In this document: positions 2,535 through 30,996 of the stretch, piece by piece
Numbering within the stretch: the stretch's first letter is position 1
How the letters are laid out: each line of letters starts with the position of its first letter
Assembly (NCBI GenBank): GCA_035532555.1
Contig: DATKQS010000024.1
Coordinates: 11,225 to 75,224, forward strand
Direction of reading: 5' to 3'
Length of the DNA: 64,000 nt
Origin: Thermoplasmata archaeon
Lineage (GTDB): Archaea > Thermoplasmatota > Thermoplasmata > Lutacidiplasmatales > UBA184
The notes under the pieces: generated by a model
Told to the model about the DNA's origin: nothing
Seen by the model: the letters and a program-made list of their open reading frames with translations, nothing else
Databases searched by the model: none
Position numbers and translations under genes: made by a program

Positions 2535-2673
2535 CCGATGCTCGCCGCGGGTAGTCGGTTTGTTTGGGTCCACGCGGACTTGAACCGACGACCTCCCGGC
2601 TCCGAGCCGGTCCACTCACCCTCGCCTACGCGAAATGCCACTCGGAGGGCCGGGGTTGCACCCTCGTTCCGCT

Positions 2674-14411: not shown

Positions 14412-14557
14412 TCCGTGACTCTACCGCATTCCACTTCATCGGGACTTCTATCGGTATCGGCCTCCGGGACATTCTCCTCGAGGAGGGAGGGAGGCGCCCG
14501 CATCAATCGGACGGAGATCTGCGAGCCCGCGACTCCGAATCAACAGGAAGGTTCTCT

Positions 14558-15906: not shown

Positions 15907-16393
15907 GAGAGCCGTGCCGGGGCCAGTGGCTTACTTTGGAGTGGATTACCGTCAGGCGATCCTAGCCCCGGTCATCCTTGGAAGATGCCCGTGCTGGGAT
16001 GCCTTAGGCTCGGCTAACGAACATCGACGCGACGACCCCGAGCCCGGCCAAGTAGCTGACCATCTCGGAATCGGTCGGCCCAAACTTTGCCTGCTGAATC
16101 CTCCTGTCCTTCGAGCCGAGAGCAACCGCGACTACGGTCTTCTTGTGGACGGCCCGCTCTACGCAGATGCCTCCCATTGAGGAGCACCTCAGACTCGGAT
16201 ACAGGAGGGCGGCATGACCCTCCGCGCCGTCAGAGAGAAGATGGCATGTCCTCAGTTCGCGGTGAGATTACGAACCGGTCCATGGAGCGGGAGAGCCTCG
16301 GCCGGCCGGTGCCGCCTTACCGGAACTCCGAAACGTTTCGGCACGTCCTTTAGTTCGAAGCCGCGTCTCCATGCCTTCAGGGACGGGGAAGAC

Positions 16394-16717
16394 ATGTCCG
16401 GGGTCGAGCGCAGCAGTGTCGTTGCCGGTCTCAAAGGGGAACCAGCCGAAGGCGGCCAGCGCGTGCTGGACATCCGGGGGGTAAGCCCCGCCGAGCGCCA
16501 TCCTCGCATCTTCGGAACATTCACCAATCTCGAGTTCGGGGAATCCTTCGTGCTAGTGAATGACCACGACCCGAAGCCGCTCTTCTACCAGCTCCAGGCC
16601 GAATACACTGGCCAGTTTTCCTGGGAGTACCTCGAACAGGGACCGAAAACCTGGCGTGTGCGAATCGGCAAGCAGGGGTCCGCAGTGGACCGGACACCTC
16701 TCCACACTATCCCCTGA
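16394..16717 (+). CDS. DUF2249-domain protein
   Basis: VLDIRGVSPAERHPRIFGTFTNLEFGESFVLVNDHDPKPLFYQLQAEY matches DUF2249, a domain recurrent in NO-response and hemerythrin clusters. Start taken at the internal Met (MSGVER). Confidence 0.6.
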   Translation: MSGVERSSVVAGLKGEPAEGGQRVLDIRGVSPAERHPRIFGTFTNLEFGESFVLVNDHDPKPLFYQLQAEYTGQFSWEYLEQGPKTWRVRIGKQGSAVDRTPLHTIP

Positions 16718-16762
16718 CGGCCGGCGGGGCCGCGGTCGGTAGGATCTTCCCTCGGACGGTGC

Positions 16763-17890
16763 GTGGGACCTCCCGTGGTAACGCGCTCTCGGGTCCGATT
16801 CCTAGGCATCGCCCTGACACTCCTCGCGTTGGCGCTGGGCCTCTGGGCGGCGCTGTGGCTAATCGGGTGGCCGATCCCGCTCCTCAGTACTTCGCTCCCG
16901 GACGCCCACGGCGTTCTGATGGTGAACGGAGTCCTTGCGAGCCTTATCGGCATTGAGCGGGCCGTAGCGCTTGAACAGCGAGTTTTCTATCTCGCCCCAT
17001 TGCTCACCGCCGTCGGTGCGATTTCGCTCGCTCTGAGTGGGGACGCCGCCCTCGCCTTTCCGGTCATCACCAGCGGTGCGGTGGCCCTTCTGCTGATTTT
17101 CCTAGTGATCCTTCGACGCCAGCCCGCGTTGCACACCGTTGTCCAGGTCCTGGGCGCCGCCTGCCTTGTCGGAGGCAACGTCCTGGGCTGGAGCGGGCTC
17201 GACATCCCGTTCCTGATCCCGTGGTGGGGTACCTTCCTGGTCCTCCTGCTTGGGGCCGAGAGGCTGGAACTGAGCCGGGTTCTCCGCCTGAACATGCTCG
17301 ACAAACTCACGTTCGCAATCTCGGTCGCGCTCGCTCTCCTCGGATGTGTCCTCTCCGCCCTCTTTTTCGCGTCCGGGTTTCTGGTGGTAGCCTCAGGATG
17401 GATCCTCGTCGCGGTCTGGCTGTTGTTCCACGACATCGCGTACCAGAACCTTTCGCGACCCGGCCTTCCCCGATTCACGGCGTTCTGTTTGCTCAGCGGC
17501 TATGCGTGGCTCCTTGTGGGCGGAGGGATCGTGTACTCCGAGGGCGGAATCCTTCTCGGATTCTCCTACGATGCGGGCCTCCATGCGGTCTTCCTGGGCT
17601 TCGTCCTCTCGCTGGTGTTTGCCCATTCTCTGATCATTCTGCCCGCGGTTCTGGGCAAGAGGCTCCCATTCCATCGAGTCCTCTACCTTCCGGTCGCACT
17701 CCTGTACACCTCCCTGGCCGCTCGAATCTATGCAGACTTCGGCAGCCTTCCGGTCCTGCGCGAATGGGCCGGCCTGTTCAACGTCGTCGCAATCGTTCTC
17801 TTCGGAGCACTCCTTCCCGCGCTCTACCTCTATGAACGCATTCCGTTCCGACGGGCCTACGGCGTGGATGCTTCGACGTTCTACCCTTGA
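16763..17890 (+). CDS. NnrS-like polytopic membrane protein (12 TM)
   Basis: 375 aa, about 12 TM helices. Conserved His in early TM regions (AHGVLMVNGVL..., AHSLIILPAV), resembling the NnrS family. Immediately downstream of the DUF2249 gene. Confidence 0.5.
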   Translation: MGPPVVTRSRVRFLGIALTLLALALGLWAALWLIGWPIPLLSTSLPDAHGVLMVNGVLASLIGIERAVALEQRVFYLAPLLTAVGAISLALSGDAALAFPVITSGAVALLLIFLVILRRQPALHTVVQVLGAACLVGGNVLGWSGLDIPFLIPWWGTFLVLLLGAERLELSRVLRLNMLDKLTFAISVALALLGCVLSALFFASGFLVVASGWILVAVWLLFHDIAYQNLSRPGLPRFTAFCLLSGYAWLLVGGGIVYSEGGILLGFSYDAGLHAVFLGFVLSLVFAHSLIILPAVLGKRLPFHRVLYLPVALLYTSLAARIYADFGSLPVLREWAGLFNVVAIVLFGALLPALYLYERIPFRRAYGVDASTFYP

Positions 17891-17970
17891 GGTGTCTCTC
17901 AGCAGAGGTGGAGTTCCTCCGTGAACTCGTCGCCATCGTACCGGCCCACACGGACTTGAAATCGGGGCCC

Positions 17971-18669
17971 TTACGCGTAGCCGAACTGGCGCTTTGCCGC
18001 CGGACTCATCTTCTCCGGCCCCCAAGGGGGATCCCATACGACGGTGACGACGGCCTCGCGAATGCCCGGGATCCTCTCGGCGACGGCCTTGACCTCGTCC
18101 TGGAGCATGCCGGCGACCGGGCAGCCTGGACTAGTCATGGTCATCCGAACGCCCACTTTTCCATCTTCTGGCCACTCGATGTCATAGATTAGGCCCAGGT
18201 CCAAGATGTTGACCGGGATCTCGGGATCATAGACCCGCCGGAGGGCCTCCCGGAGCTGGCGTTCCCGCTCGTTCTCGGTGCGATGGACCCCTGCCGAGTC
18301 GACGGCTGCGGGGGTCGAACCCGGCCCTTCCACCGTTCGGTCCGATGTAGAGGATACCGGCGGATGGGTGCTGAAGTGGGGGCCTACGATCGAGAAACTT
18401 TGCTGGGGGGACCCCTCATGGAAATCCACGGTCGCACCGTCGAGATAGACCCGACTGGCCGTGTCCACGACCAGCCGCGCCGCGCCGAAGTCGAGGGTCT
18501 CATCTCCCGACCGGGGCCTCGATAGGTACATCTGTACTGTCGGGTGCATGCCGGGGAGTATCCCAAGCCGCACGATCGCGGGAGGCGGACTCCGGGCGAT
18601 GGCCGCAGCAATCGCATCCCGGGCCGCAGTCGTGACCTCGAAGCGGAAGGCAAGTTCCTTTTTGGCCAT
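17971..18669 (-). CDS. Fusion protein: N-terminal HesB/IscA-like domain and C-terminal DUF59 (MIP18/SufT-like Fe-S assembly) domain
   Basis: N-terminus ELAFRFEVTTAARDAIAAAIA...IVRLGILPG...RLVVDTASRVYLDGATVDF is IscA-like. C-terminus YDPEIPVNILDLGLIYDIEW...MTMTSPGCPVAGML...VWDPPWGPEKMSPAAKRQFGYA is the DUF59 signature. Confidence 0.7.
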   Translation of the reverse strand: MAKKELAFRFEVTTAARDAIAAAIARSPPPAIVRLGILPGMHPTVQMYLSRPRSGDETLDFGAARLVVDTASRVYLDGATVDFHEGSPQQSFSIVGPHFSTHPPVSSTSDRTVEGPGSTPAAVDSAGVHRTENERERQLREALRRVYDPEIPVNILDLGLIYDIEWPEDGKVGVRMTMTSPGCPVAGMLQDEVKAVAERIPGIREAVVTVVWDPPWGPEKMSPAAKRQFGYA

Positions 18670-19196
18670 GTTCCCTCGCCGACAGGGATATCCCGGGCTT
18701 GGATTACAAGCCCTCGCCGAACCGTTTCGGTGTTCGAGCGAGCGGGATGGCGGATGGGTTTGGAAGCCTCCGGCTCATCGTGCCCGTAGATCTCGAACGT
18801 GGGTCTGAAGGAGGATTGAGCCCTCACACGACGCGGGCGATCCGTTCCGCACGATATGGAAGTAGGACGCGTGCGGGCGATTGCGGGAGGGGCGAAGAGC
18901 GAGGGGAGGGCGCTTCGAGACGGACGCCAAGCGCACGGCAAGGTCCTTCGAACAAGTCTAGGTAGAAACCGGAGGCGACGCCAGAAAGCCGCTCAGGTTC
19001 GAGCGGAGGGCAGATAGTCACCCAGAGTGTCGCCGGTCGATGAGATTCCACGCGCGTAGCTACCGACCCACGGGTGTAAACCCGGACCGTGCCACGAGAA
19101 GAGACTCTCTCTTCGCCGCTCGATCCTGATGCACGACTTGGTCAAGGGGCCGCGGTAAGAACGCGGCGGTGCAGCCTCGTTCGATGGGAAGGGGTC

Positions 19197-19688
19197 CGGA
19201 TGTTCGAATGGGTTCCACTGATTCTCGTGATCCATGTGTTGGGGGCCATAATCTGGGTGGGCGGCAACATCTCTCTCGCGATCGCCGTCTGGGGCATTCG
19301 GAGGTCGTTTCCGAACCAGCCGGAGACGGTATCTCGGGTCATCTCTGAGGTCGGTAGGGCTTTCGCGTGGGTCATGTGGCCGGCGCTAGCCGCCACCCTA
19401 GCGACCGGGCTCGCCAACCTCTCGTGGTACACGCCTCCGGCGGAGAACTGGACCGGGATTCCCGGGGCAGAGTGGATCGTCACGAGCTTCGCTGTAGCCG
19501 CGCTCATGGTGATCTCGGCGGGATTGCACACTTTCGTGGTGGGGCCGAGGATCCGGGTCCTACGAAGCCGGAGAACCCCGTCGCCGCAATTGACGACCCT
19601 CGTGCGCTTCAATCACGTCCTCGAAGCGCTGACCCTAATGACCGCCATCTTGATTGTGATCGTGATGGTCATTCTCGCTTCGCTCTGA
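19197..19688 (+). CDS. Small integral membrane protein (4 TM), DUF-type
   Basis: Start taken at MFEWVPLILVIHVLGAIIWVGGNISLAIAVWG. Hydrophobic profile. Confidence 0.45.
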   Translation, partial: RMFEWVPLILVIHVLGAIIWVGGNISLAIAVWGIRRSFPNQPETVSRVISEVGRAFAWVMWPALAATLATGLANLSWYTPPAENWTGIPGAEWIVTSFAVAALMVISAGLHTFVVGPRIRVLRSRRTPSPQLTTLVRFNHVLEALTLMTAILIVIVMVILASL

Positions 19689-20943
19689 TCTCCGGGGAAA
19701 GTGGCGAAGCCTTAGGGGCCCGTAGCACCGCGAGGTAGGAATTCACGAACTCCGTCGCCATCTTCTCCACGGACGCACGCGCGATGACCCAGGCTCGGCC
19801 GCGTTCGGAAAACTCGCGAGCGAGGATCCCGTCGTTGAGCAGGAGCTCGATCGCCGCGGTCAGTGCTCCAAGGTCCTGAGGATCGACGATGAGACCTGCC
19901 GACGATTCGCGTGCGATCTCGCCGGGACCTCCTCGACACGTGACCACACATGCCGCCCCCGACGCCATCGCTTCGAGGAGGGCCACCGACGAGGTGTCGG
20001 ACAGCGAGGGAAGCACAAAGATCTGAGTCTGCGCGAGCAGGGCTGCCTTCTCTCGTTCGAGCACCGGCCCCAGGTACTGGGCGCGTGCGGACAGGGCAGT
20101 CCCGGGGCGCAACCGCTCTTCCATCGAAGGTCGCTCGGGTCCCTCACCCGCCACGACGGCCAGCCAACGCGTCGCAGTTCCCAGTCGCTCAACCGCGTCG
20201 AGGAATCGATGGACCCCCTTGTCCCGGGTGAGTCGCCCGAGGAACGTGATCAGCGGAACCCCCTCCACGCCCCATCGGGCCCTCCAGTCGGGAGAGGCGA
20301 TCCCCGGTCGAAAGGTCGTGGTGTCGATCCCGTTCTCCACGATTCGAGGAGGCGCGTGGAGGTGGGACCGCCCTGGCGCGCGGAGGGCCGCCCCCGCCGC
20401 CACCGTTGGTGCGGTCGCTAGATCGGACGAACGGCAAAGTTCAACGCTGAACCTTCCCCATCCCCGGTAGAACGCGCGCGACAGCCGACTCGTCCCCGCC
20501 CCCCGCAACATGTCGGTCAGGTTTGTGTGGTACGTAGCGACCTTGGGGACGTGCCACCATCGAGCGGCGAGCCAACCGGCGAGTCCAACGAACCCGGGTG
20601 TGTGAACATGGACCACGTCAAAGCGATGTCCTCCGGAAAGAAACGACGGCCACGGAAAGAGTGCGATGCGGTACTGAGGGTAGCTCGGAGCCGGTAGGGA
20701 CAGATGTCGGTACACGGTCACACCGTTCGCGAGCCGTTCCCGTCGCTTCTGCCCCGGCAACCGGACTGTAAACACCGAAAGCTCGTGGCCGCGGGCGGCG
20801 AGTTCCGCGGCGAGTGCGGCCGTGGTCCCCGCAACGCCGTCGTGCGTGGGCAGGAAGCTGTCGGTAAAGAACGCGATTCTGAGCAACGAGCCGCTTCGGA
20901 GACCGGCACCGGCGGCCCGCTCAGGTCCGGATTGGCTCGTCAA
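19669..20943 (-). CDS. GT4 (GT-B) glycosyltransferase
   Basis: RIAFFTDSFLPTHDGVAGTT..., HVHTPGFVG, and FVLPSLSDTSSVALLEAMASGAACVVTCRGGPGE are GT4 motifs. Confidence 0.8.
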   Translation of the reverse strand: MTSQSGPERAAGAGLRSGSLLRIAFFTDSFLPTHDGVAGTTAALAAELAARGHELSVFTVRLPGQKRRERLANGVTVYRHLSLPAPSYPQYRIALFPWPSFLSGGHRFDVVHVHTPGFVGLAGWLAARWWHVPKVATYHTNLTDMLRGAGTSRLSRAFYRGWGRFSVELCRSSDLATAPTVAAGAALRAPGRSHLHAPPRIVENGIDTTTFRPGIASPDWRARWGVEGVPLITFLGRLTRDKGVHRFLDAVERLGTATRWLAVVAGEGPERPSMEERLRPGTALSARAQYLGPVLEREKAALLAQTQIFVLPSLSDTSSVALLEAMASGAACVVTCRGGPGEIARESSAGLIVDPQDLGALTAAIELLLNDGILAREFSERGRAWVIARASVEKMATEFVNSYLAVLRAPKASPLSPEIRAKRE

Positions 20944-20968
20944 TGGCTGATGTCCTTCCGTAGGCTGC

Positions 20969-21217
20969 CTACGTACCGGACGCGGGAGGATAAGGCTCCG
21001 AGCGCGCCCCAGGAGAACCGGCAGGCACCATCGAATCCGAAGGTGGGACGGCCCGTCTCCAACTCCGCCCGAGAGGATAGTCCGGGTAGGGTGGGCGTTC
21101 CCGAGGGCAGTGATCGCAGTCGCACGCTTCCGCGCGATAGGGATGGCGGAAGTTGTGGACCCCCTCTTCCCATGGATAGCAGGAGACGCAAATGCAGAAC
21201 CGGCAATCGTGGGACAT
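20969..21217 (-). CDS. Possible small Cys/His-rich protein
   Basis: 82-aa ORF with CRFCICVSCYPWEEGVHNFRHPYRAEACDCDHC. Could be a metal-binding mini-protein, but there is no family-level support. Confidence 0.2.
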   Translation of the reverse strand: MSHDCRFCICVSCYPWEEGVHNFRHPYRAEACDCDHCPRERPPYPDYPLGRSWRRAVPPSDSMVPAGSPGARSEPYPPASGT

Positions 21218-21429
21218 CGCTCTCCCTCCCAGCGACCGTACTCTCTGGAAACCCTTGAAGCGGAATCCGAATGGGTTCGGTCGGAACTTCCCGAGCCCGC
21301 GCGGACCCTCTCATCCTCTCGCGGTGGACACCGACCGAAAAGATCCGGGGCGGCCGAACCCTTTCGGTCTTCCCTTCTTGCCGAGAGAAGTCTCTGCCTC
21401 TTGCGGGGGCAGACCTCGTCAGCGAACTC

Positions 21430-21981
21430 ATGTCGAAGCCGGCCGGAGCCCTAGAGGAACTGCACCGGGAGCACGAGGTCGCCGAGCGCCTGCTGGAACG
21501 ACTCGTGGAACTCGGAGACCGGATGAAGTCGGGGGAGCGAGTCGATGCCAAGGCCGTCCGCTTCGGAGTCGGCCTGCTAGACGCGTACCTTCACCGTGTT
21601 CACGCCTCGCAGATGGACCGCGAACTCCGCCCCGAAGCGCAGGGCGTCGCGATGCCGGGCTGCTTTGAGCACCTGGACCGGATGCGAACCAACCATGAAC
21701 AGATGCGGGCTCGAGCGCGGGAGCTCCTCGCCCTCATCGGCAGATGGGCTTCCGGGGACGAATCCTGCCGTGGGGCAGCCGGCGACAAGCTCATCGACCT
21801 CGCAAGCAGGGACCATGACGCCGCCACCTACGAGGAGGCGTACCCGCTCATCTGCCTGGAGTCAGCGCTACCCGAAGACGCCGAGAACCGCCTCTCGAAC
21901 CGGTTCTCGGATCATGCGGGGACCCGGGCGGCGCTCGAGGCGAACATCGAACGGTTCCTCTCCGAGACCGTGGCGATCTAG
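21430..21981 (+). CDS. Hemerythrin-like (HHE cation-binding) domain protein
   Basis: LEELHREHEVAERLLERL, then H/E-rich helices (HRVHASQMDRE, CFEHLDRMRTNHEQM). Paralogous to 23752..24633. Start taken at MSKPAG. Confidence 0.55.
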   Translation: MSKPAGALEELHREHEVAERLLERLVELGDRMKSGERVDAKAVRFGVGLLDAYLHRVHASQMDRELRPEAQGVAMPGCFEHLDRMRTNHEQMRARARELLALIGRWASGDESCRGAAGDKLIDLASRDHDAATYEEAYPLICLESALPEDAENRLSNRFSDHAGTRAALEANIERFLSETVAI

Positions 21982-22062
21982 ATTCCCCATTCGAGGGTAC
22001 TCGGACCTCCGAGCTGCCGCTCGTCCGTTAAGGAAGCCGGGGGTTCGGTCGCGGGCCCCCGT

Positions 22063-22797
22063 TCAGTACCGCTCCACAAAGACATGGTCCTTGGGGCAGT
22101 TCAGGTGGAGCGCGAGCTCCTGGGTCTCGTTCACCATGGCCGGGACGCCGCAGACGTAGACATCCGAGTTCGATAAGTCTGGGAATCGCTCGCGCAGAGC
22201 TCCTTCCACGTGGCCAACGGCACCGTGCCACGTCCCATTTGCCGGAGGGCGCGAGAGGACCGGTACGAAGTGGAACGCCGGCCAAGCGATCTCAAGTGCG
22301 CGCATCTCGTCGAAGTAGAACAGATCCTCCCGGAAGCGCTCGCCGAAGATGAGCCAGGTGGGGGTTTGGGGGGAGTGAGCTCGGATATCGTCCAGCATGG
22401 GGATGAATGGGGCGAGCCCCGTCCCGGTCGCCACGAACACGGCGGTCCTATCTCCGGGAGGATCCAGCAGGAAGCGTCCCAGTGGAGCTAGCCCCTTCAG
22501 CGTCGGGTGGCTCTCGGGGGCGAGGCCGCAGAGGAAGGTCGAGCCGTATCCGCCAGGGACCTGCTTGATGAGCAGATCGAACTGCCCGACCTTCCCGGCC
22601 GCTGAGAAGAACGAGTAGGAACGGGTGATCGAGTTCCCCGCCCTCGAGAGGTAGAAGGTAACGTACTGGCCGGGAGCGAACGCGAAGCTGTCATCCCGGG
22701 CCGTACGGAAGGTTAGGACGTGGACCGAGGGTACGATGATCCGGTTCGACTCAAGGGTGAATTCCCTCTTGCGCGGTGTCTCCATGATACTGGACAA
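22063..22797 (-). CDS. FNR-type FAD/NAD(P)-binding oxidoreductase (ferredoxin-NADP reductase family)
   Basis: RSYS FAD-binding motif (NSITRSYSFFS), FVATGTGLAPFIPML NAD(P)-binding motif, and C-terminal YVCGVPAMV. Confidence 0.8.
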   Translation of the reverse strand: MSSIMETPRKREFTLESNRIIVPSVHVLTFRTARDDSFAFAPGQYVTFYLSRAGNSITRSYSFFSAAGKVGQFDLLIKQVPGGYGSTFLCGLAPESHPTLKGLAPLGRFLLDPPGDRTAVFVATGTGLAPFIPMLDDIRAHSPQTPTWLIFGERFREDLFYFDEMRALEIAWPAFHFVPVLSRPPANGTWHGAVGHVEGALRERFPDLSNSDVYVCGVPAMVNETQELALHLNCPKDHVFVERY

Positions 22798-22869
22798 GGC
22801 GGCCAGCGGCTTACCGGTGCGCCGAAACGGTTCGGTGGACGGCCGTTGCCCCCTCGCGTGAGGGGCGTC

Positions 22870-23592
22870 CTAGCTCCCCGGCGGCCAGCGCTCGAGCAGT
22901 TTCTTCTCGACGATTGCCAACGCCTCGGAAAGGCTTGAGACCGCCATCCGTTCCTGGGCGGCAAGACGGGTCAGGGTAATCTTGCGGGGAACGTCGAAGT
23001 ATCCGGCCGCCATCGCCCGTTGGAGCAACTCGGCCTGACGAGGAGTGAGCGCCTCTCTTCCAGTCGTGACCTCTGAGTGACGGACCGACTCGAGGATCAC
23101 TCCCGGTGCGCGCTGTGACAACTGGTCGAGGAGTTGGCGTATCTTCTGCTCCGAAGCGATCACGACCCACGATGCCTCTCCGGCCCGTATCGTGAATGGA
23201 AAGCGTCGCAGCAGGTAGAGCTTCCGGAAAATCGGAATGAACGGGGAGGTGCGGTGGATCACTCGGAGGTGAACCTCCCGGGGCCCGGACGTGAGGAACT
23301 CCACCTTTTCCACCAGGTCTATGGCGTGGAGCTGGTCGGCCCAAGGGCCGGGTTCGGTTACGTGGAGGCGCACCTCGCTGAGGCTCCGACGCGCCCCCAG
23401 GTCAAGGTTGCTCAGCACCTCGATGGTCACGTCGGGGTGCTCCCGGGAGAAGCGGGCAATCCAAGCGGAGTCCGGGAGGGGCACCCGCAAGCGACAGATG
23501 CGCGTCGGCCCGGGAACGGGCTGGGGGGCTTTCGTCGGATGGACCCGTCGGGTCGTCCCCCGCGACCGGGCGAGCTGGGCGCGAGGGACCAT
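22870..23592 (-). CDS. Bat-like (bacterio-opsin activator family) HTH_10 transcriptional regulator
   Basis: C-terminal LTPRQAELLQRAMAAGYFDVPRKITLTRLAAQERMAVSSLSEALAIVEKKLL is the archaeal HTH_10 signature. Confidence 0.75.
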   Translation of the reverse strand: MVPRAQLARSRGTTRRVHPTKAPQPVPGPTRICRLRVPLPDSAWIARFSREHPDVTIEVLSNLDLGARRSLSEVRLHVTEPGPWADQLHAIDLVEKVEFLTSGPREVHLRVIHRTSPFIPIFRKLYLLRRFPFTIRAGEASWVVIASEQKIRQLLDQLSQRAPGVILESVRHSEVTTGREALTPRQAELLQRAMAAGYFDVPRKITLTRLAAQERMAVSSLSEALAIVEKKLLERWPPGS

Positions 23593-23751
23593 GCCCCGCG
23601 AGCCGCCGGGGAGGGCATATTCGTTTCGGAGCCCCCGGAAGTCGAATCGGGGAATCCAATTCGCCGGAGCATCGTCCGCCGAACCCTCTAGGTCCGCGCC
23701 TTAACCGACGACACAACCATACCGTCGCGAAAGTCCCACGGAGAAAAAACG

Positions 23752-24633
23752 ATGAACGCAATCGAAGCACAGGACCCACTAGACGAGCTAGAGCGTGAGA
23801 ACGACGTCGCGGAGAAGTTGATCGAGCGTCTAGCGGAGATGGCGATAGTGTTGAAGGAGGGCCGGAACCTACCGCCCGGAGAAATCAGCGAAGGACTCCG
23901 CCTCCTCGAGCAGTATCGCACCGTGCATGCCGCTCGAGTCGACGTCGACCTGAAGGTCGAGGCAAGGCCCTGGGCGATGAGCACCTGCTTTCAGCATCTC
24001 GATGCGATCGCCAACGATCACCAGACGGAAGGCGATAGGATCGCCCGGGCCCAGGAGGCGCTGAAGGAGTTCACACTCGATCCTGAGGAAGCCAGGGCAC
24101 GACTATCCCAGGCGTTGGCCGACCTGACAGAGAAGGACCACCAGAGCTTGGTTTACGAGAATGACTACCCCCTCTCCTGCCTCCGGGCCGCGCTCCCCGA
24201 CGGTGCTGCTTCTCGAGTCTCCGCGGCGTTCGAGGCGACATCCTCCGCTATCGCGGACTTGGATGGGCACATCGTCCGGTATCTGGAGCATGCACCGGGA
24301 ACGCCAGGGCATGGGTTGACCGTGCGCTGCAGCCGGGCGAACTGCGAGGCGAGCGCCGAGTCGCACGTGGTATCCTCGAACGATGGCCGATTGGGAATCG
24401 AGGTACCTCTAGGCTGGCAGGTGGCTCCCCAATCGCCGAACTTCAGTAAGGACCGGACCATCCGTCTAAAGGTCGATTTCTGTTGCCCGGCGCACCACGA
24501 GAAGTGTTTGGCGCACGAGGGAAAGGCGCTCCCCATGTGGATGGATGAGGGGGGTCTCGGGCCGCAAAGAGAAACGACTGCAGGTCGTGGGTCCGGTGGC
24601 TGCTGCGGACCGATCCCAGAGGATGCCCGGTGA
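23752..24633 (+). CDS. Hemerythrin-like domain protein with a Cys-rich C-terminal extension
   Basis: LDELERENDVAEKLIERL plus H/E helices, paralogous to 21430..21981. C-terminal CSRANCE...FCCPAHHEKCLAHE...GGCCGP suggests metal binding. Confidence 0.55.
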   Translation: MNAIEAQDPLDELERENDVAEKLIERLAEMAIVLKEGRNLPPGEISEGLRLLEQYRTVHAARVDVDLKVEARPWAMSTCFQHLDAIANDHQTEGDRIARAQEALKEFTLDPEEARARLSQALADLTEKDHQSLVYENDYPLSCLRAALPDGAASRVSAAFEATSSAIADLDGHIVRYLEHAPGTPGHGLTVRCSRANCEASAESHVVSSNDGRLGIEVPLGWQVAPQSPNFSKDRTIRLKVDFCCPAHHEKCLAHEGKALPMWMDEGGLGPQRETTAGRGSGGCCGPIPEDAR

Positions 24634-25151
24634 GGCTCGACTTGCTTCCATCCGCAGTGGCTCCACCCATTCACCGCGCCGTCCCCTCCTCGGATGGCCT
24701 GCGACTCATCGCGTCCGGCATGGTGTACTTGCTCGTCGTGTGCGGCGTCGTGCTCGTCACGAGTGCCCAGTCGATCCTCGGAGGAGCGGCTTCTGTGCCG
24801 AGCCGCCTGTTCGACGATCGGGACCTGGTCGCCCTCTTCGGCTGGGTGGGAATGATGATCACCGGGGTGAGCGTCATCATCATACCTAACCACCTCGGAG
24901 TCCGTCTTCGACCGCTGTATCTCCCACGGCTTCACTTCGTTCTGGCGAACGTCGGGCTTGCCGGGTTCTTCGGTGCGGACCTTCTAGCGCCCGGGTCCGC
25001 TGCACCGGAGGTCTTCTTGGGGTTGGTCGCGGCTTCGTTCTTGATCTTCGGGCTCGGAGCACTCGCGACGGTTGCTCCCTTCGTTCATCTCTCTCGGTCC
25101 CGGTCAAGGGTCGCGACCACGACCTCAGGCGAGCATCGAACGACGGACTGA
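24630..25151 (+). CDS. Integral membrane protein (4-5 TM)
   Basis: Hydrophobic helices. Start overlaps the stop of the upstream hemerythrin-like gene. The real start may be the internal Met at ~24720. Confidence 0.45.
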   Translation: MRLDLLPSAVAPPIHRAVPSSDGLRLIASGMVYLLVVCGVVLVTSAQSILGGAASVPSRLFDDRDLVALFGWVGMMITGVSVIIIPNHLGVRLRPLYLPRLHFVLANVGLAGFFGADLLAPGSAAPEVFLGLVAASFLIFGLGALATVAPFVHLSRSRSRVATTTSGEHRTTD

Positions 25152-25527
25152 GCGACGCCTCTTCGTTCCGGGGAACTCGTCGAATTTCTCGACCCGGACG
25201 AATGAACTAGCGTGTCCAGACCAGTTCGATCGTGAGATGAGCGGTCGCTCCTCCTGCAAGGAATAAGACGCCGCAGCGAAGATTGCCGCGTCGATATCTC
25301 GAATCAGTCGTCCGTCTCTTTCTTCTGCTGACAGCCGCCGGTCTCCCACAGCGCGTGGCATCCTCGTGCCCGGACCGATCCATGGCTATCGTTAGAAGAA
25401 GGGCGGAGCGGTCTGCGGGAGGAATGCGAGAGCTCGTCTCGGGCCCACCCTCTCCGGATACCAGGCGGCTCTGCTCGTTCTACTACTACCACTCGGTGCC
25501 GTAACACGCGCCGCTCGGGCGTGCGAC

Positions 25528-25812
25528 TCACTTGTAGACCGACTGGTAGGTCTTCCCCTCGTCGTCCCAGATCGTGATGCAAGAACCCTCGCATTCCGTT
25601 AAGCAGGCGTTGCAGAGAATGCAGTCGGGGCCCTGCTCGGCCACGGACTTCTCCGCACGGAATTGGAACTTCGCCGCGACCTCGGCATCGTCTATAACAT
25701 CGGGGAATTCGGTGCGGACGTGCATCACGAACACGTTCACGGGGCAGACGTCGAAGCAGTGCCGGCAACCCGTGCACTTCTCGGTTTGGACCTTGACGTC
25801 CACGGATCTCAT
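25528..25812 (-). CDS. 2x[4Fe-4S] ferredoxin
   Basis: CTGCRHCFDVCP and CILCNACLTECE cluster motifs. Start at the internal Met (MRSVDVKV). Confidence 0.8.
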   Translation of the reverse strand: MRSVDVKVQTEKCTGCRHCFDVCPVNVFVMHVRTEFPDVIDDAEVAAKFQFRAEKSVAEQGPDCILCNACLTECEGSCITIWDDEGKTYQSVYK

Positions 25813-26207
25813 CCCCCCAGGCCCGGCATGCAACCGGCATGGCAGAGGGCGAGGTTCTGGGGAACGTTCAACCCCCCGGCAACCAGAGGCAACCGAAGAG
25901 CCAAACTGAGACAAGATCCCTGCGGGGCACGAGACGAAGGGCCGGTAGGTAGAGCCACCTCCCCTTCGCACACGGAACACCTCGGACCCAGTTTGTCGAG
26001 CTCCCACTGGAGCGCAAGAGCGTACATCGGAGCGGTGGGACGGTAGGATCCGGGCGGCTGAGCCCTCCAGACCTCCTCGTGACGTTCCACCAGTCGGCGA
26101 ATCACGCTCTCTAGCACCTCGTGTTGGCTACGGAAGTGCGTCTTGGCCAGCGCATTCAACCTCACCCGCGTCCACTCGTTCGCCGGGCTGACGTTCTGGT
26201 TCCTCAT
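25809..26207 (-). CDS. Hypothetical protein with a possible ribbon-helix-helix N-terminus, immediately upstream of ferredoxin
   Basis: MRNQNVSPANEWTRVRLNALAKTHFRSQHEVLESVIRRLVERHEE. Its stop abuts the ferredoxin start. Confidence 0.35.
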   Translation of the reverse strand: MRNQNVSPANEWTRVRLNALAKTHFRSQHEVLESVIRRLVERHEEVWRAQPPGSYRPTAPMYALALQWELDKLGPRCSVCEGEVALPTGPSSRAPQGSCLSLALRLPLVAGGLNVPQNLALCHAGCMPGLGG

Positions 26208-26642
26208 CTTCCCTCTCTATTCCGTACGGTCAATACGAAGCGATTGGATAACGCCGGTCATGGAGGTCCTGTCCCGCTGCTAGCACGGAATTCCTTCACA
26301 CGGGGGTCCGAGAGTTTCCGCCAGTCCCCACGGCCTCTGCGTCGACGCGTGATAACAGCAGTTCCGACTCCCTCGCGTGGGATCCGACGGTCACCCGGTC
26401 GGGCGGACCCGGGCCTACGATGAGCGGAGTGTCTTCCGATCGCACCCGCGTCGGAGCTACAAGAGCCACCCGTACGTCGAACGGATTGAGCTACAGGTCG
26501 GACCCGGCGCCGCATCGTTTTCGCGGCGGGAGCGAAGAGCATCTTCTGGAGATCGGGAACCATCTTCACCATGGTCACGATGAGCATCCAACGTCCTCCA
26601 CGAAGACTCGGCCCTCACCTCAGCCGGTGGCCGGTCTCCCCT

Positions 26643-27014
26643 TCAACCCCGGAGGCGTTCCTCGAGGGACTCTCGGAGGACAGAGGCATTGCAGTGCTCG
26701 GCGTCGTGCGCAGCGAAGAGGAGGGTGACGACCCCGGAGCGCGCTTCCCGCACGAGTCGGTCGAGTAGGTCGGAGTGCTTCCCGAGTTCCGTGCGGTAGC
26801 GTCTCCGAAAGGCGGGGTACTTCTGGGGGTCGTGCCCAAACCAAGTACGAAGTCCCGGCGAAGGGGCGAGGTCCTTGAGCCACTCTGTGAGACGGAGACT
26901 CTCCTTCTTGAGTCCCCGCGGCCAGAGTCGGTCGATAAGGTAGCGCCGCCCATCGGTCGGCGCGGGTGGCTCATAGACCCGCTTGGTTTGGATGCTCATA
27001 CGGGTTGCCTGCAC
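26643..27014 (-). CDS. DUF488-family protein
   Basis: RVYEPPAPTDGRRYLIDRLWPRGLKKESLRLTEWLKDLAPSPGLRTWFGHDPQKYPAFRRRYRTEL matches the DUF488 signature. Confidence 0.7.
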   Translation of the reverse strand: MQATRMSIQTKRVYEPPAPTDGRRYLIDRLWPRGLKKESLRLTEWLKDLAPSPGLRTWFGHDPQKYPAFRRRYRTELGKHSDLLDRLVREARSGVVTLLFAAHDAEHCNASVLRESLEERLRG

Positions 27015-27277
27015 GGATGAGAGACTATTGAATCATTTGTCGCGCGACACACTTTCGGTGCGTCACGATCGAGGACTCCACCTCTTCTCGGGCGTCACGA
27101 CCCGCGACGTCCCACTCTGACGGCGGGGTCAGGACATTCCCCGCCTCCGGGCCACCCTCCCTCCGGCGGGCAAACCGCTCCGGTCGCATCGAATGTGCCG
27201 TCGACCTTGAAGATGGCTACTGTCCTCAAGAACCGTGTCTGGGTTCTGAGGAATGTGCGGCTTCCTCGGGAGGACCC

Positions 27278-27753
27278 CTACGGCTCGTGCCGGTTCTGCT
27301 CGGGCTCCCCGAGCTCCCGGTGCACCGCCCTTGCATCGCTGTCGGAAAGGTGCGTGTCGAACCAAGGGTAGACGGCATCTTCCTCGCGAGCGTTGTGAGC
27401 CCAGAGGACGTTGACGAGCTCGAACTCCAGATCCTCGGTCGACGCCAGCCCTTCGTCCAGCCGGAGTCGGATCCTTCGCAGAACCTCCTCGATCCGTCGG
27501 TGCTCGTCCAGCATCCGGTCGACCAAGGCGCGACGGGAGGGATCCGCTTCCGCAAAGACGGGGAAGAGAAGCCGCTCTTCGACCTCGATGTGGCGACTCA
27601 GGTCGGTCGCGAACCGCTCGAAGCGTCCGCGACGCTGAGCCGCCGCGGATACGGGAGTCGCCTGGAACTCCTCGAACTTCAGGTTGAGTTCTCGGTGGTC
27701 GTTCGACAGCAGATGCGACGGCAGCTCGTTCGTGTGGTTCATCGGCTGCTCCA
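27278..27753 (-). CDS. Hemerythrin HHE cation-binding domain protein
   Basis: HRELNLKFEEF...HIEVEERLLFPVF...HRRIEEVL...NAREEDAVYPWF is the classic H/E pattern. Start at MEQPMNHT (ATG complement 27751-27753) overlaps the end of the upstream membrane gene. The longer ORF extending to 28897 is an out-of-frame artefact. Confidence 0.7.
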
Positions 27754-29007
27754 TCTTTCTCGAATGGTCCGGATCTCCTCGCTGGTCAGTCCCGGCAGGG
27801 GATTGAGTCCCCTGTAAAGGACCGGTACCGTACCGACCCCCCATGCAATGGCCACTCCGAGAAGGATGGCCCCCGAGAACGGCGCCAACCAACTGGTACC
27901 TACCCATCCTCGGGCGCCCGCCGTTGCGGCGGCGGCCACCCCGGCAACCCATACCACGGAGAGCGCCCAGAGCATGCGTCGGGTCCAGGCGTGGGAGATA
28001 CGCTGGAACGGCGCGATCATCCCGAACCACATGGCCAGGATCATGAGCCCCACGAAGCCCAGGACGTTGACGAGTGCGTGGGCAATGACCAAGGTGTAAT
28101 TCGACTCGGAGACCATCCAGAGGCCGATCGCTCCACCGACCAGAAAGAACGTCGCTCCCATCAGGTGTAGGCCGGCCTCGGCACGACGAGTCCGGGCCCG
28201 CCTCACGAGGATGATCAGCATGGAAACGAACAGGATCCCGAATGCGGCCTCGGGCGCCGCGAAGACGACGATGTCGCCGGTCGGGAGAGGAGGGGTTGCG
28301 AGCATACCGCTGGGAACGAGGATCGCGCCCGCGATGGCGAGGCCGGCGAGCAGGTAGACCAGCGGACGCGAAACGTCTGCGCCCAGGAACCGGGGCACGA
28401 GGCGGAGGCTGACCGCCGTGATGAGGAGAATGACGTGCCCGAGGACGAACAGGTGTACCGCGCCGAGCCACCAGCCATACCCGGGCCCCTCCGCAAATCC
28501 GGAAAGGACGAACATCCCTCCCGCGCTCACCGCTGATGCCCACGAAGCAAGAAAGAGGGGAACCGTGACGGCATCGCCCGGCCGGGCCTCGGGACCGGGA
28601 GTCTCCACCCGGGGTTGAAAGAGTCCGTAGGCGAAGAGACCGGAAACAGTTCCCACGCCGCCCAGGAACAACATCGCCCCGAGGGAGAAGACCCATCCCG
28701 GGATTGGAGGTGAGGTCGCTTCGGAGAGGCCGACGGCCCCGAGGACGAGTCCCCCCTCGGCGAGGAGGAACGCAGCCTGAGCAACCCATGGGGGTGGCTG
28801 GGGTCGCCGAGCGATCGTCGGAAAGAGGTGGAGAGCGAATCCGGCCGTTGTGAACCCGACGAAGCCGATGAGGAGAAGCCAGAGGAGAAAGTCCCAACGC
28901 ACGGTGAGTGCCCCTACTCCCGAGCCCAGCAGCAACACGGCACCTGCCGCCGCGAGATGGACCAGAGCTGAGGTGAGAAACTGACGGGAAACAGCGGAGA
29001 GTGGCAC
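27739..29007 (-). CDS. Polytopic membrane protein (~12 TM), possibly NnrS-like, forming an operon with the hemerythrin gene
   Basis: 422 aa, strongly hydrophobic with about 12 predicted helices and conserved His (ALHLFPTIARR, HLFVLGHVILLI, HALVNVLGFV). Confidence 0.5.
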   Translation of the reverse strand: MPLSAVSRQFLTSALVHLAAAGAVLLLGSGVGALTVRWDFLLWLLLIGFVGFTTAGFALHLFPTIARRPQPPPWVAQAAFLLAEGGLVLGAVGLSEATSPPIPGWVFSLGAMLFLGGVGTVSGLFAYGLFQPRVETPGPEARPGDAVTVPLFLASWASAVSAGGMFVLSGFAEGPGYGWWLGAVHLFVLGHVILLITAVSLRLVPRFLGADVSRPLVYLLAGLAIAGAILVPSGMLATPPLPTGDIVVFAAPEAAFGILFVSMLIILVRRARTRRAEAGLHLMGATFFLVGGAIGLWMVSESNYTLVIAHALVNVLGFVGLMILAMWFGMIAPFQRISHAWTRRMLWALSVVWVAGVAAAATAGARGWVGTSWLAPFSGAILLGVAIAWGVGTVPVLYRGLNPLPGLTSEEIRTIRERWSSR

Positions 29008-29143
29008 GCCTCGCTAAGCGCTGGCGGACCTATATTCTCCGCTAGGCCCGCTCCGTGTCTCCGCCCTGACCCTCCAGCCTGCGCCGCACACGATGCTCTT
29101 GGACGTGCGTCGGTTCAGGGGCGACAGCGCTCTTTCGACCCGT

Positions 29144-29250
29144 AGAACTTCGATTGTGCAGATCGGCGTCGGAAGAGACTACGGACCACCACACGGATCG
29201 CTGGCCATTCGCGTCCGTCATCAGGAAAGTGGTTCGTAGTAGTACTCGCC
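29144..29250. repeat. Repeat copy C: ~88% identical to 2234-2342. It spans the native ABCE1 stop (29219-29221) plus ~75 bp downstream.
   Basis: Alignment with copy A. The core corresponds to the real ABCE1 C-terminus ...GEYYYEPLS*. Confidence 0.8.
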
Positions 29251-30996
29251 CGCCGACCGCTGCTCTCGATCGAGGGCCGAGCCTTCCTGGTTGATCCGCG
29301 GGCGTAGGGTTTCCGCGTCGCGGCGGAAGGTGATGTCGATGTTCCGCAGGAGGCGGTTCATCCCCTCCCGCATCGGAAAGGGGCCCTCGCCCAGACCGGC
29401 GGCGCCCGCATCGCGGGAGGAGAAGACCATCAACGCGTCGCACGCGATGTCGAGGAAGTACACGTCGTGGTCCACGACGAGGGCCGACATCGCTTGGCGT
29501 TCCACCTGGCGTCGGATCAGGCGCGCCATGGACATGCGCTCGTCGGCGTCCAGATAAGCGGAGGGCTCGTCCAGAAGATAGAGTTGCGCGGGGCGCGCGA
29601 GGGCGAGCGCCACGGCCGCCCGTTGGAGCTCTCCGCCCGAGAGATCGGGGAGCGCGACGTCGAGCACCTCGTCCAGGTGAAGGCCGGGAACCAAGTCGCG
29701 CTCGAAGAGCGCCGCGTCGAACGTCGGATCGGCCGCGAGGGCCACCATCCGCTCGCGTAGGCTCGCCTTGTGGGTCGCGCGGAGGTACTGCGGCTTGTAA
29801 CTGACGGTCACCGAGGCCGGAGGTGCGCCCCGGGTGGGGGATTCGACCCCGGCGAGCATGCGGACGAAGGTGGTCTTGCCGGTGGCGTTCGGCCCGACGA
29901 TTCCCACGGTCTCCCCCTTCGCGAGGCTCCCGGCGCCGACGGAGAGATGGAACTTCGGGAACTCTTTCTCGAGTGGGGGAAACGACACGATCGCATCGAG
30001 GCGGGTCGTGGGCTTGGGCGGATGCGCGACGAAGCGGATCGGGTCCGTGCGGAAGCGGACGTTCTCCTCCCGCAGGTAGCCCTGAAGGTAGGTGTTGATC
30101 GCGGTGCGCATGGGCATCGCGCGCGTGATGACCCCGAAGGCCGAGGACTCCCCGTACAGCAGATGCGCCTGGTCGGCGAGGTAGTCGAGCAGCGCGAGGT
30201 CGTGTTCGATCACGAGAACGCTCTTGCGCTCGCCGAGGCGGCGCAACGTCCGCGCGATCTGGAGGCGATGGACGATGTCGAGGTACCCCGAGGGCTCGTC
30301 AAAGAGGTAGAGATCGGCCTCGGTGGCGAGCGTCCGCGCGATCGCGGCGAGCTGGAGCTCTCCGCCCGAGAGCTCGGAAAGAGGTCGTTCGGCCCTCGCG
30401 CTCAGCCCGACCGAGTCGAGGGCCGGGGCGGCCTCGCCTCCGCCGGCCGCCACATACGCTTCCGCGGTCATCGGCTCATCCGCGATCCGATCCACGTACT
30501 GCGGCTTCACCACCGTGCGCAACTCGCCCCGAGCGATCTTCTGGAAGTGGGCGTGCAGGGTTGTCCCGCGGTAATGCTCGACGACGGCCTCCCACTCCGG
30601 ACGCTTCGTGTAGTCTCCGAGATTGGGGATCTCGACACCGGCGAGAATCCGGAGCGCCGTGGACTTCCCGGTTCCGTTCGGACCCAGGAGTCCCGTGATC
30701 CCCTTGCTGGGAGGCGCGGGGAGCCGGTAGAGGCGGAACCCGTTGTAGCCGTACCGGTGCACGATCTCCGATTCGTCCGCCTCGGGGGTGTTGAGGATCT
30801 TGATCGCGTCGAACGGGCACTTGTGGATGCAGATCCCGCAACCGATGCACAGGGTCTCGGAGATGATCGGCTTGCCGGTGGGCCCCTCGACGATGCAGGC
30901 CTGCCCCATTCGGTTCACCGGGCAGTACTCCGCGCACTCCCACTGGCACTCCTTGGGGTGACAGCGGTCGTTCAGCAGGATGGCGATCCGGCTCAT
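29221..30996 (-). CDS. abce1: ABCE1/RLI ribosome-recycling factor (Fe-S cluster domain plus twin ABC ATPase)
   Basis: N-terminal MSRIAILLNDRCHPKECQWECAEYCPVNRMG...CIGCGICIHKCPFDAI (two 4Fe-4S motifs). Two NBDs (GLLGPNGTGKST, GIVGPNATGKTT). C-terminus ...ITFRRD...YYYEPLS. Confidence 0.95.
   Translation of the reverse strand: MSRIAILLNDRCHPKECQWECAEYCPVNRMGQACIVEGPTGKPIISETLCIGCGICIHKCPFDAIKILNTPEADESEIVHRYGYNGFRLYRLPAPPSKGITGLLGPNGTGKSTALRILAGVEIPNLGDYTKRPEWEAVVEHYRGTTLHAHFQKIARGELRTVVKPQYVDRIADEPMTAEAYVAAGGGEAAPALDSVGLSARAERPLSELSGGELQLAAIARTLATEADLYLFDEPSGYLDIVHRLQIARTLRRLGERKSVLVIEHDLALLDYLADQAHLLYGESSAFGVITRAMPMRTAINTYLQGYLREENVRFRTDPIRFVAHPPKPTTRLDAIVSFPPLEKEFPKFHLSVGAGSLAKGETVGIVGPNATGKTTFVRMLAGVESPTRGAPPASVTVSYKPQYLRATHKASLRERMVALAADPTFDAALFERDLVPGLHLDEVLDVALPDLSGGELQRAAVALALARPAQLYLLDEPSAYLDADERMSMARLIRRQVERQAMSALVVDHDVYFLDIACDALMVFSSRDAGAAGLGEGPFPMREGMNRLLRNIDITFRRDAETLRPRINQEGSALDREQRSAGEYYYEPLS

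Follow-up and report, generated by a model that had tools for sequence, protein, structure and literature searches.

Gene content of the region beside ABCE1

At the 3' end of the essential ABCE1 (RLI) gene of a Thermoplasmata archaeon lies a group of genes for membrane proteins, hemerythrin-like and DUF2249 proteins, a flavoprotein, a ferredoxin and a transcription regulator, which an original prediction made from the letters of the DNA had described as an acquired island for nitrosative or oxidative stress. We analyzed this group within a window of 64 kb, the whole stretch of DNA under study, and compared it with the ABCE1 loci of 80 related Thermoplasmata genomes. The presence of ABCE1/RLI identifies the host as archaeal, and its nearest relatives are soil and peat Thermoplasmata, Lutacidiplasmatales metagenome-assembled genomes among them. 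The G+C content of the window (~65%) generates many spurious frames in raw lists of open reading frames (ORFs); genes were chosen by G+C content at each codon position and then by comparison with public gene calls. The reading we favor, with a probability of roughly 0.55, is that the group is a 13.5-kb integrated element (~15709-29220), one of two in tandem at the ABCE1 end, carrying a co-regulated module for defense against nitric oxide (NO). The element, called island 2 below, and the repeats that accompany it are laid out as follows (coordinates in the window).

2228..2567, - strand: repeat A; R arm, exact 27-nt core (2310-2336) and downstream segment
15600..15939, - strand: repeat B; R arm (15709-15939), the ABCE1 3' end in a 27-nt copy with 1 mismatch (15682-15708), and the downstream segment in degraded form
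16394..16717, + strand: DUF2249 protein, 107 aa (PF10006, E = 1.8e-32); a 107-aa homolog is called in locus L091
16763..17890, + strand: TM375, 12-helix membrane protein with predicted heme-copper-oxidase subunit I fold; large family without a Pfam model
17971..18669, - strand: fusion of a Cys-less IscA-like N-terminal domain and a DUF59/SufT-like Fe-S assembly domain
19197..19688, + strand: CopD/DUF2269/DUF4149-like small membrane protein, 163 aa (CopD match)
19669..20943, - strand: GT4 glycosyltransferase, not in homologous clusters
21430..21981, + strand: Hr1, hemerythrin-like, 183 aa (PF01814, 30.6 bits)
22063..22797, - strand: FNR-like flavoprotein with FAD_binding_6 and NAD_binding_1 domains
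22870..23592, - strand: HTH_10 transcription regulator, 240 aa (PF04967)
23752..24633, + strand: Hr2, divergent hemerythrin-like domain (paralogous to Hr1) and C-terminal Cys/His domain
24630..25151, + strand: TM173, four-helix membrane protein, 173 aa; its start overlaps Hr2 by 4 nt
25528..25812, - strand: 2x[4Fe-4S] ferredoxin, 94 aa (Pfam)
25809..26207, - strand: 132-aa ORF with a 4-nt overlap with the ferredoxin start; no family match
26643..27014, - strand: DUF488 protein, N3i subclade (PF22752, E = 7.7e-42)
27278..27742, - strand: Hr3, hemerythrin with the complete motif set (PF01814, 66.6 bits)
27739..29007, - strand: TM422, 12-helix membrane protein with predicted heme-copper-oxidase subunit I fold; family without a Pfam model
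29139..29257, - strand: repeat C; true ABCE1 3' end (core 29221-29247) and ~80 nt downstream
29221..30996, - strand: ABCE1/RLI gene, the integration target; terminal codons ...EPLS* here and ...EPAA* in relatives

The island comprises three pairs, each consisting of a membrane protein and a small soluble partner. The DUF2249 gene is followed, 45 nt on and on the same strand, by the gene for TM375 (375 aa). The start of the Hr3 gene overlaps the stop of TM422 (422 aa) by 4 nt, an arrangement that had been correctly anticipated as a hemerythrin translationally overlapped with a second large 12-TM (transmembrane helix) protein. The third pair, Hr2 and TM173, is likewise translationally coupled through a 4-nt overlap. 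The two repeats said to delimit the region, B and C, were located where listed above, and the FNR-type flavoprotein and the DUF488 protein were recovered in Pfam as predicted. Three genes had gone unmentioned: those for the GT4 glycosyltransferase, the CopD/DUF2269-like protein and TM173.

A palindrome shared by promoter regions of the island

The promoter regions of the island have a palindrome, CCGAA-N4-TTCGG, in common. It occurs five times in the window against 0.22 expected, a count of 5 being reached in 0 of 100 shuffles, and all five copies (starting at 16328, 18717, 21267, 21354 and 22822) fall within island promoter regions:

16328..16341: palindromic box CCGAAACGTTTCGG, ending 52 nt upstream of the DUF2249 ATG; TATA-like TTTAGTT follows
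18717..18730: palindromic box CCGAACCGTTTCGG, ending 47 nt upstream of the IscA-like/DUF59 start; TTGTAAT follows
21267-21280 and 21354-21367: two palindromic boxes upstream of the Hr1 gene (21430)
22822..22835: palindromic box CCGAAACGGTTCGG, 36 nt upstream of the FNR-like ATG

A half-site at 23616-23629 lies 23 nt upstream of the ATG of the HTH_10 gene. The enrichment is a property of the full palindrome only, as the 8-mer CCGAAACG by itself is not enriched in the window (7 occurrences versus 4.5 expected), and just six copies of the palindrome were found in the 80 ABCE1 loci pooled. Spacing is kept in a related genome, L091, where boxes precede the DUF2249 start by 52 nt and the IscA-like/DUF59 start by 47 nt, the same distances as in the window; in both genomes TTTAGTT or TTGTAAT begins 7 nt after the box. 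A further box, in locus L086, occupies the divergent promoter between two hemerythrin-type genes. Sites directly upstream of the TATA-like element are where archaeal regulators act on the recruitment of TFB and TBP, and the HTH_10 protein of the cluster is the obvious candidate to bind the palindrome.

Membrane proteins with a predicted oxidase fold

TM375 and TM422 are predicted with high confidence to adopt the 12-helix fold of subunit I of heme-copper oxidases (HCOs) and NO reductases (NORs). AlphaFold models built from family alignments contained 12 long helices each, with mean confidence scores (pLDDT) of 93.8 for TM375 and 89.0 for TM422, and were compared with the PDB by Foldseek. The best matches of TM375 were NorB (4xyd_A and 3o0r_B), CcoN (3mk7) and ba3 subunit I, at query TM-scores of 0.60-0.65 and a probability of 1.0. 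TM422 gave 36 matches with E < 1e-3, led by CcoN (8smr_E, E = 6e-6) and ba3 (1ehk_A), and every match inspected was an HCO or NOR subunit I. Profile searches of PDB sequences with the two families retrieved no oxidase or NOR chain, and neither protein had a COX1 (PF00115) match in Pfam.

The TM375 family is large: its homologs number more than 2800 and come from Thermoplasmata and from many bacteria. A cytochrome c fusion is the single homolog with a Pfam domain. TM422 has 94 homologs, essentially all from Thermoplasmata, all ~422 aa long and outside any Pfam model. The original prediction had described an operon of DUF2249 with an NnrS-like gene, and duplicated hemerythrin/membrane-protein modules. 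The operon arrangement and DUF2249 were upheld, but neither large membrane protein matched Pfam NnrS (PF05940) even at E<=10; sub-threshold matches were seen for 5/35 members of the TM375 family and 3/31 of the TM422 family, the best at E = 0.007 and 0.006, respectively. Nor was any paralogy detected between TM375 and TM422 (BLASTP E = 3.2; hhalign probability 30%). TM375 and TM422 are remote NnrS-like members of the heme-copper-oxidase fold, and their description as paralogous NnrS-like genes is not supported.

Conserved histidines are few. In the TM375 family they are H49 (helix 2) and H274 and H288 (helix 10) only; in the TM422 family H185 (helix 6), H310 (helix 10) and H339 (helix 11) are invariant and H17 and H60 (helix 2) nearly so. 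Both families lack an HH pair in helix 7, and the His ligands of CuB and of the high-spin heme are missing. True oxidases carry heme ligands on helices II and X. The conserved His in helices 2 and 10 therefore make one predicted b-type heme per protein plausible, held between the helix-2 and helix-10 His; these residues are also the only hint that the proteins might bind heme and copper as NnrS does. A similar pattern of helices and histidines was reportedly described by Pei, Li, Kinch and Grishin in 2014 for NnrS and other 'HCO homology' proteins.

The third membrane protein, TM173, has four hydrophobic helices and 26 homologs in an exhaustive search. One homolog, of 413 aa, matches TM173 in three separate stretches and aligns with the TM422 family (85% probability, E = 6.4e-6), which marks TM173 as a single-unit relative of the 12-helix proteins.

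Soluble and accessory proteins

The DUF2249 protein covers positions 1-70 of the 70 in the PF10006 profile, at 111.4 bits. Of the three hemerythrins that had been proposed, Hr1 (30.6 bits) and Hr3 (66.6 bits) exceeded the PF01814 cut-off of 25.3, and Hr2 alone fell below it (12.6 bits), although it is a paralog of Hr1 (36% identity over 170 aa, E = 8e-31). Thus a profile check of the named ORFs passed DUF2249 and two hemerythrins and failed NnrS. Hr2 also has the divergent, Cys-rich C-terminus that had been noticed, an extension of 114 aa with 7 Cys; domains of this type follow the pattern CxxxxC ... CPxH ... CC. The family of Hr1 and Hr2 has 41 members, exclusively archaeal, in which H59 and H82 (the only two His of the di-iron set), E16, E70, E136, C79 and C143 are conserved. 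The fold is hemerythrin-like, and metal binding is probably different. Hr3, by comparison, retains a complete pattern of putative ligands, H / HxxxE / HxxxE / HxxxE (DH, RHIEVE, EHRRIE, AHNARE). It matches the RIC/YtfE model TIGR03652 weakly (27.5 bits against a cut-off of 204.7), and no DUF1858/ScdA_N domain was found in it, which places it outside RIC/YtfE membership.

Other assignments held in part. The IscA-DUF59 fusion has a clear DUF59 half (FeS_assembly_P, 3e-19; TIGR02945, 1e-33, under its cut-off), and its IscA half is sub-threshold for Fe-S_biosyn (17.6 bits versus 26.3) with zero Cys. A 73-nt inverted repeat (18084-18156 / 35503-35575, 77% complementary) represents paralogy between this gene and a conserved core DUF59 gene; the two lie on opposite strands and share 50-60% protein identity by tblastn. 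The ferredoxin was as described and has a 4-nt overlap with an upstream gene; this upstream 132-aa ORF, which had been called ribbon-helix-helix (RHH)-like, matched no Pfam or NCBIfam family and is missing from the homologous clusters of L086 and L091. The regulator, predicted to be Bat-type, has the HTH_10 domain (E = 2.4e-12, residues 182-234); residues 1-180 have no Pfam domain, hence no PAS or GAF sensor, so the term Bat-type applies to its DNA-binding domain only. The CopD-like protein scores just above the family cut-off (8e-8; 33.1 bits versus 32.1) and has homologs in L086 and in a bacterial contig, L107. The GT4 glycosyltransferase is probably a passenger, given its absence from homologous clusters.

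The gene set recurs in other Thermoplasmatota

The island gene set is a conserved module. In a distant Thermoplasmatota lineage (L086-L088), 10 island genes cluster within 7 kb at 30-81% identity: CopD-like, FNR-like, ferredoxin, Hr1/2-type, Hr3-type, DUF488 (60% identity to the island protein in L086), HTH_10, TM422-type, DUF2249 and TM375-type. Seven island genes are found together in L091, from the genome that also gave the ABCE1 locus L082, where they adjoin formate dehydrogenase genes and an IS605 TnpB gene and are not at ABCE1. In a third context the TM422 and Hr3 pair occurs on its own with the 4-nt overlap kept.

Insertion at the 3' end of ABCE1

All 80 relatives keep the genes for an ABC ATPase, FtsX and DUF59 upstream of ABCE1, and none (0/80) has island genes within 10 kb downstream of it, not even the one whose flanking DNA is 94% identical. 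Conservation of the locus in all relatives, which would have told against acquisition, is thus not seen. At the DNA level, alignments to the closest genomes (94%, 87% and 82% identity) break off in every case at window position 29231, 10 nt before the ABCE1 stop codon.

This breakpoint lies within the final 27 nt of ABCE1 (original at 29221), which recur as an exact copy at 2310-2336 and as a one-mismatch copy at 15682-15708. The copies are direct, include coding sequence and the stop codon, and are spaced at 13.37 and 13.54 kb. Repeats A and C have in addition ~85 nt of downstream sequence in common (87-89% identity), and repeats A and B a 220-nt R arm (82% identity). G+C at third codon positions (GC3) is 0.769 in island 2 and 0.756 in the adjacent island 1, compared with 0.870 for 22 core genes (p = 1.3e-6 and 5.7e-5, respectively). 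The simplest reading of the layout is ABCE1 - core - island 2 (13.5 kb, NO module) - R - core - island 1 (13.3 kb) - R - core - native DNA, in which repeat B is read as the junction of islands 2 and 1, and repeat A as the distal end of the tandem island 1.

The same site is occupied in a relative, L006, where ~1 kb separates ABCE1 from the R arm. This segment holds, within 10429-11309, a remnant of a truncated tyrosine-recombinase C-terminus (PF00589, E = 1.8e-5, 25 bits versus a gathering score of 27.1) and a small gene pair that looks like a ParE-type toxin-antitoxin system (Pfam match sub-threshold); after the remnant come the R arm and a displaced pseudo 3' end, ...EPAA*. Acquisition of the island is well supported by these observations. 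As the closest homologs all come from other Thermoplasmata and parts of the module occur elsewhere in relatives, protein comparisons point to shuffling within the lineage, with another Thermoplasmata as the donor and not a bacterium. The idea of an acquired island therefore stands, on its absence from the 80 relatives, the 27-nt repeats and GC3, and an import from bacteria does not.

The R arm (~110-220 nt, with the invariant core CGGTGGAGGACCG) always adjoins ABCE1 3'-end sequence, and is in direct orientation beside the pseudo-ends of the window and of L006. Its copies are:

Window: 2346-2567 and 15718-15939
L006: 11361-11510
L011: 12128-12234
L018: 12507-12622
L043: 12344-12467

The coding potential of the R arm is ambiguous, with two open frames and 24/8/15 substitutions over the three codon positions. 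An RNA gene is unsupported, as a consensus fold of the six copies shows almost no covariation (term -0.44 kcal/mol). Rfam returned only tRNA-Thr (whole window at the gathering score; repeats A and B at E<=1). A split SSV-type integrase was rejected, the gap between the core and TM422 being only ~130 nt with no frame running through R arm and core. As for a casposon, no Cas1 family match was present among the island ORFs scanned with Pfam, terminal inverted repeats not having been specifically searched for. The 8.8 kb to the left of the window contain no further core copy. A scan of IMG/VR with a 16-nt R-arm motif gave chance matches only, a scan of JGI metagenomes for the R/core junction recovered the L006-type organism alone, and a literature search on integration at ABCE1 in archaea found nothing relevant.

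Association with nitrogen oxide metabolism

The indication of function comes from bacterial gene neighborhoods. On megaplasmid pHG1 of Cupriavidus necator H16, genes for DUF59, a TM375 homolog (WP_011154151, annotated 'hypothetical protein'), an Rrf2 regulator, DUF2249 and hemerythrin lie a few kb from norR-ytfE-norB. The bacterial contig L107 combines a quinol-dependent NOR (qNOR), a NirK-like protein, two DUF59 proteins, a hemerythrin-DUF2249 fusion, a cupin, a TM375 homolog (TM386), two CopD-like proteins and a Crp/Fnr regulator. In a nosZ-nosDFYL cluster of Chloroflexi, a TM375 homolog is accompanied by cytochrome c, DUF1858 and cupin genes. In two more bacterial contexts of TM375 homologs the neighbors were only DUF2249 or cupin genes. 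Published work is in line with such an association: bacterial NO regulons count nnrS and the hemerythrin-like gene dnrN among their core members (PMC1274295), a DUF2249 protein is DrpA of the nitrate-respiration island of Thermus (PMC6282519), and in Haloferax four DUF2249 genes are induced under denitrifying conditions along with bacterioopsin-activator-like (HTH_10-type) regulators (PMC11218638). By this analogy, NO defense is probably the function of the island.

We infer the following scheme, in which signal, cofactors and chemistry, as well as the pairing of regulator with operator, are provisional. Site-specific recombination would have placed the elements into the last 27 nt of ABCE1 in a soil or peat Thermoplasmata archaeon. 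The HTH_10 protein would bind CCGAA-N4-TTCGG at the position of the TFB recognition element (BRE), immediately upstream of the TATA-like elements, and binding would switch on at least four transcription units in the presence of NO or of some related signal of nitrogen or redox state. Together with their di-iron or DUF2249 partners, the membrane proteins may bind NO, reduce it or protect the iron pool; electrons could flow from NAD(P)H through the FNR-like reductase and ferredoxin, and the IscA-like/SufT fusion might rebuild damaged Fe-S clusters. A bolder version of this scheme, which we think improbable, is that the three pairs, the reductase and the ferredoxin form an unrecognized archaeal NAD(P)H-driven system that binds or reduces NO at a membrane heme and is in effect an oxidase-fold enzyme with its second metal center, a di-iron (hemerythrin) site, provided in trans by another protein; it would spread among soil Thermoplasmata on integrase-less elements targeting ABCE1.

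Competing explanations

Several observations weigh against the element with its NO module. What can be said of function, the nitrosative-stress reading included, is drawn from gene neighborhood, the context in bacteria being its sole basis, and the window contains no nitrite, NO or N2O reductase gene. Each membrane protein family has 3 to 5 conserved His and not the six that ligate two hemes and CuB or FeB in catalytic oxidases and NORs, which casts doubt on true NO reduction, and most canonical di-iron ligands are lost in Hr1 and Hr2. The TM422-Hr3, DUF488 and 132-aa/ferredoxin units lack the full palindrome. On the side of mobility, neither island contains an integrase, tblastx of the L006 integrase region against the window gave nothing credible, the 8.8 kb of contig left of the window are likewise free of an integrase, and no excised form was found. 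Relatives also differ downstream of ABCE1, and synteny with them is lacking on the left side of repeat A too, so there is no clean empty site to define the far boundary. An inverted R arm directly next to the real ABCE1 stop codon, as seen in three relatives (L011, L018 and L043), is an arrangement for which the model offers no explanation. Island genes are 62-84% similar to those of one relative and core genes 54-79%, about equal values that leave the time and source of acquisition unclear.

An oxygen-handling module would account for some of the same genes: hemerythrins that bind or sense O2 and oxidase-fold proteins acting as low-level O2 reductases or sensors, supplied by the reductase and ferredoxin, in microoxic adaptation or defense against oxidative stress. 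O2 binding is the classical activity of hemerythrins, Hr3 has the full set of putative ligands, the fold of the membrane proteins is that of oxidase subunit I, and the contig carries an AhpC/Redoxin gene left of the window. We nevertheless consider this unlikely, because the ligands of CuB and the high-spin heme are missing, because the informative bacterial contexts all combine nor, nirK-like or nos genes with regulators of the NorR, Rrf2 or Crp type and none is an oxidase operon, and because Thermus and Haloferax link DUF2249 to denitrification (PMC6282519, PMC11218638). The CopD, DUF59/SufT and IscA-like domains, the extra Cys/His metal site predicted in Hr2 and the strong regulation of metal homeostasis during haloarchaeal denitrification (PMC11218638) would instead fit a module for metal homeostasis and cofactor maturation (copper or iron traffic by the CopD-like and the other membrane proteins, iron storage or sensing by the hemerythrin-like proteins, Fe-S assembly by the IscA-like/SufT fusion) in which nitrogen oxides are not specifically involved. 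This is less likely again, since it leaves unexplained both the NAD(P)H reductase with its ferredoxin and the repeated bacterial co-location with nor and nos genes, and the CopD match is barely over its cut-off.

The existence of an element could itself be disputed, if the region were simply a fast-evolving, variable stretch after ABCE1 whose repeats arose by local duplication of the ABCE1 terminator region or represent a conserved small gene (the R arm). That the window lacks an integrase, that the R arm follows ABCE1 directly and in opposite orientation in the three relatives named above, and that synteny is lost left of repeat A would all fit. Such an account, the least probable of those considered, has to contend with direct 27-nt copies that hold coding sequence and a stop codon and are spaced 13.37 and 13.54 kb apart, with the replaced terminal codons of ABCE1, with the integrase remnant and displaced native-type end at the same site in L006, and with a GC3 clearly unlike that of the core. 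Taken as a whole, the original prediction was partly confirmed in its observations, and its interpretation was partly supported and right in direction.

Comparison with known systems

NnrS and other HCO homology proteins resemble the large island proteins in having 12 TM helices with the subunit I fold and few conserved His, sufficient for about one heme, in having relatives that consist of a single four-helix unit, and in being encoded near DUF2249, hemerythrin and denitrification or NO genes. The size and helix number of NnrS (PF05940; ~12 helices, ~400 aa) are matched by the modeled TM375 and TM422 (375 and 422 aa). They differ in that neither protein reaches the Pfam model, with a minority of family members giving sub-threshold matches, and in that the TM422 family is essentially restricted to Thermoplasmata.

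The sets of pHG1 and L107 share with the island a DUF59 protein, a TM375-family protein, DUF2249, hemerythrin and a dedicated regulator beside them, and L107 also shares the CopD-like protein. The bacterial sets, however, are neighbors of genuine NO reductase genes and have regulators of the Rrf2, NorR or Crp families, whereas the island is without such a reductase gene and has an HTH_10 regulator; additional members of the island are TM422-Hr3, Hr2-TM173, the FNR-like reductase, ferredoxin and DUF488. DrpA of Thermus thermophilus and the DUF2249 proteins of Haloferax mediterranei offer a second parallel, through a small DUF2249 protein, an archaeal HTH_10-type regulator and a common promoter motif (PMC6282519, PMC11218638), but genes of the nar, nir, nor and nos types are absent from the vicinity of the island. 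In Haloferax the motif is CGAAYATDKTYG (PMC11218638) and in the island CCGAA-N4-TTCGG, and the partner in Thermus is DrpB, in contrast to a membrane protein of predicted oxidase fold here. The RIC/YtfE/DnrN proteins resemble the island hemerythrins in their four-helix di-iron domain and NO-linked context (PMC9268430, PMC1274295). Hr3 differs from them in lacking ScdA_N/DUF1858 and in scoring far under the cut-off, and Hr1 and Hr2 in having mostly lost the di-iron ligands.

As a mobile element, the island compares best with islands of tyrosine recombinases, which classically occupy the 3' ends of tRNA genes. Shared features are direct repeats of the target 3' end, a terminal sequence borne by the element, tandem arrays, strain-variable cargo, skewed base composition and absence from the site in close relatives. 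The differences are a protein-coding target, ABCE1, and an integrase that survives only as a remnant in a relative (L006).

In bacteria the component families had been described before, as had their association with NO genes. What the locus adds is the architecture of the regulon in an archaeon, a pairing of TM422 with hemerythrin that is specific to Thermoplasmata, the pairing of Hr2 with the single-unit TM173, a candidate operator, and ABCE1 as a target site. The accessory set of DUF59, DUF2249, hemerythrin and NnrS-like proteins, a companion of bacterial nor and nos genes, is thereby extended to archaea, and the protein-coding 3' end of ABCE1 emerges as a recurrent insertion site in the lineage. 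In acidic soils and peat NO is formed chemically from nitrite, and the locus supplies candidate genes by which abundant uncultured Thermoplasmata may cope with it. It also supplies two families without a Pfam model, with a predicted oxidase/NOR fold, and a directly testable candidate regulator-operator pair.

Other features of the locus

Island 1 (2337-15681) carries genes for cell-surface glycosylation and is absent from the ABCE1 loci of relatives. It encodes a PGI/PMI-like SIS protein, two GT2, a GT87 and a GT4 glycosyltransferase, a methyltransferase, an NAD-dependent epimerase and an HTH regulator. The gene for the regulator (7061-7588) and a small membrane ORF are bracketed by a 41-nt inverted repeat (7009-7049 / 7925-7965, 76% complementary).

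Just outside repeat A, on the minus strand at 2575-2625, is a tRNA-like T-arm, GGTTCAAGTCC, with a possible anticodon stem before it. ARAGORN makes no call there, and either decay of a former tRNA or mere chance could account for the likeness. In L082, ~8 kb downstream of ABCE1 (19740-20767), fragments resembling FtsX (residues 62-144) and the ABCE1 N-terminus (residues 10-118, 60-68% identity) suggest that DNA at this same hot spot was partially duplicated or rearranged. The contig to the left of the window (L093:1-8798) is not syntenic with relatives and contains stress and metal genes: those for AhpC/Redoxin, a YHS-domain P-type ATPase, an ABATE/zf-CGNR protein and an ornithine cyclodeaminase-like protein, and two ChrB_C genes.

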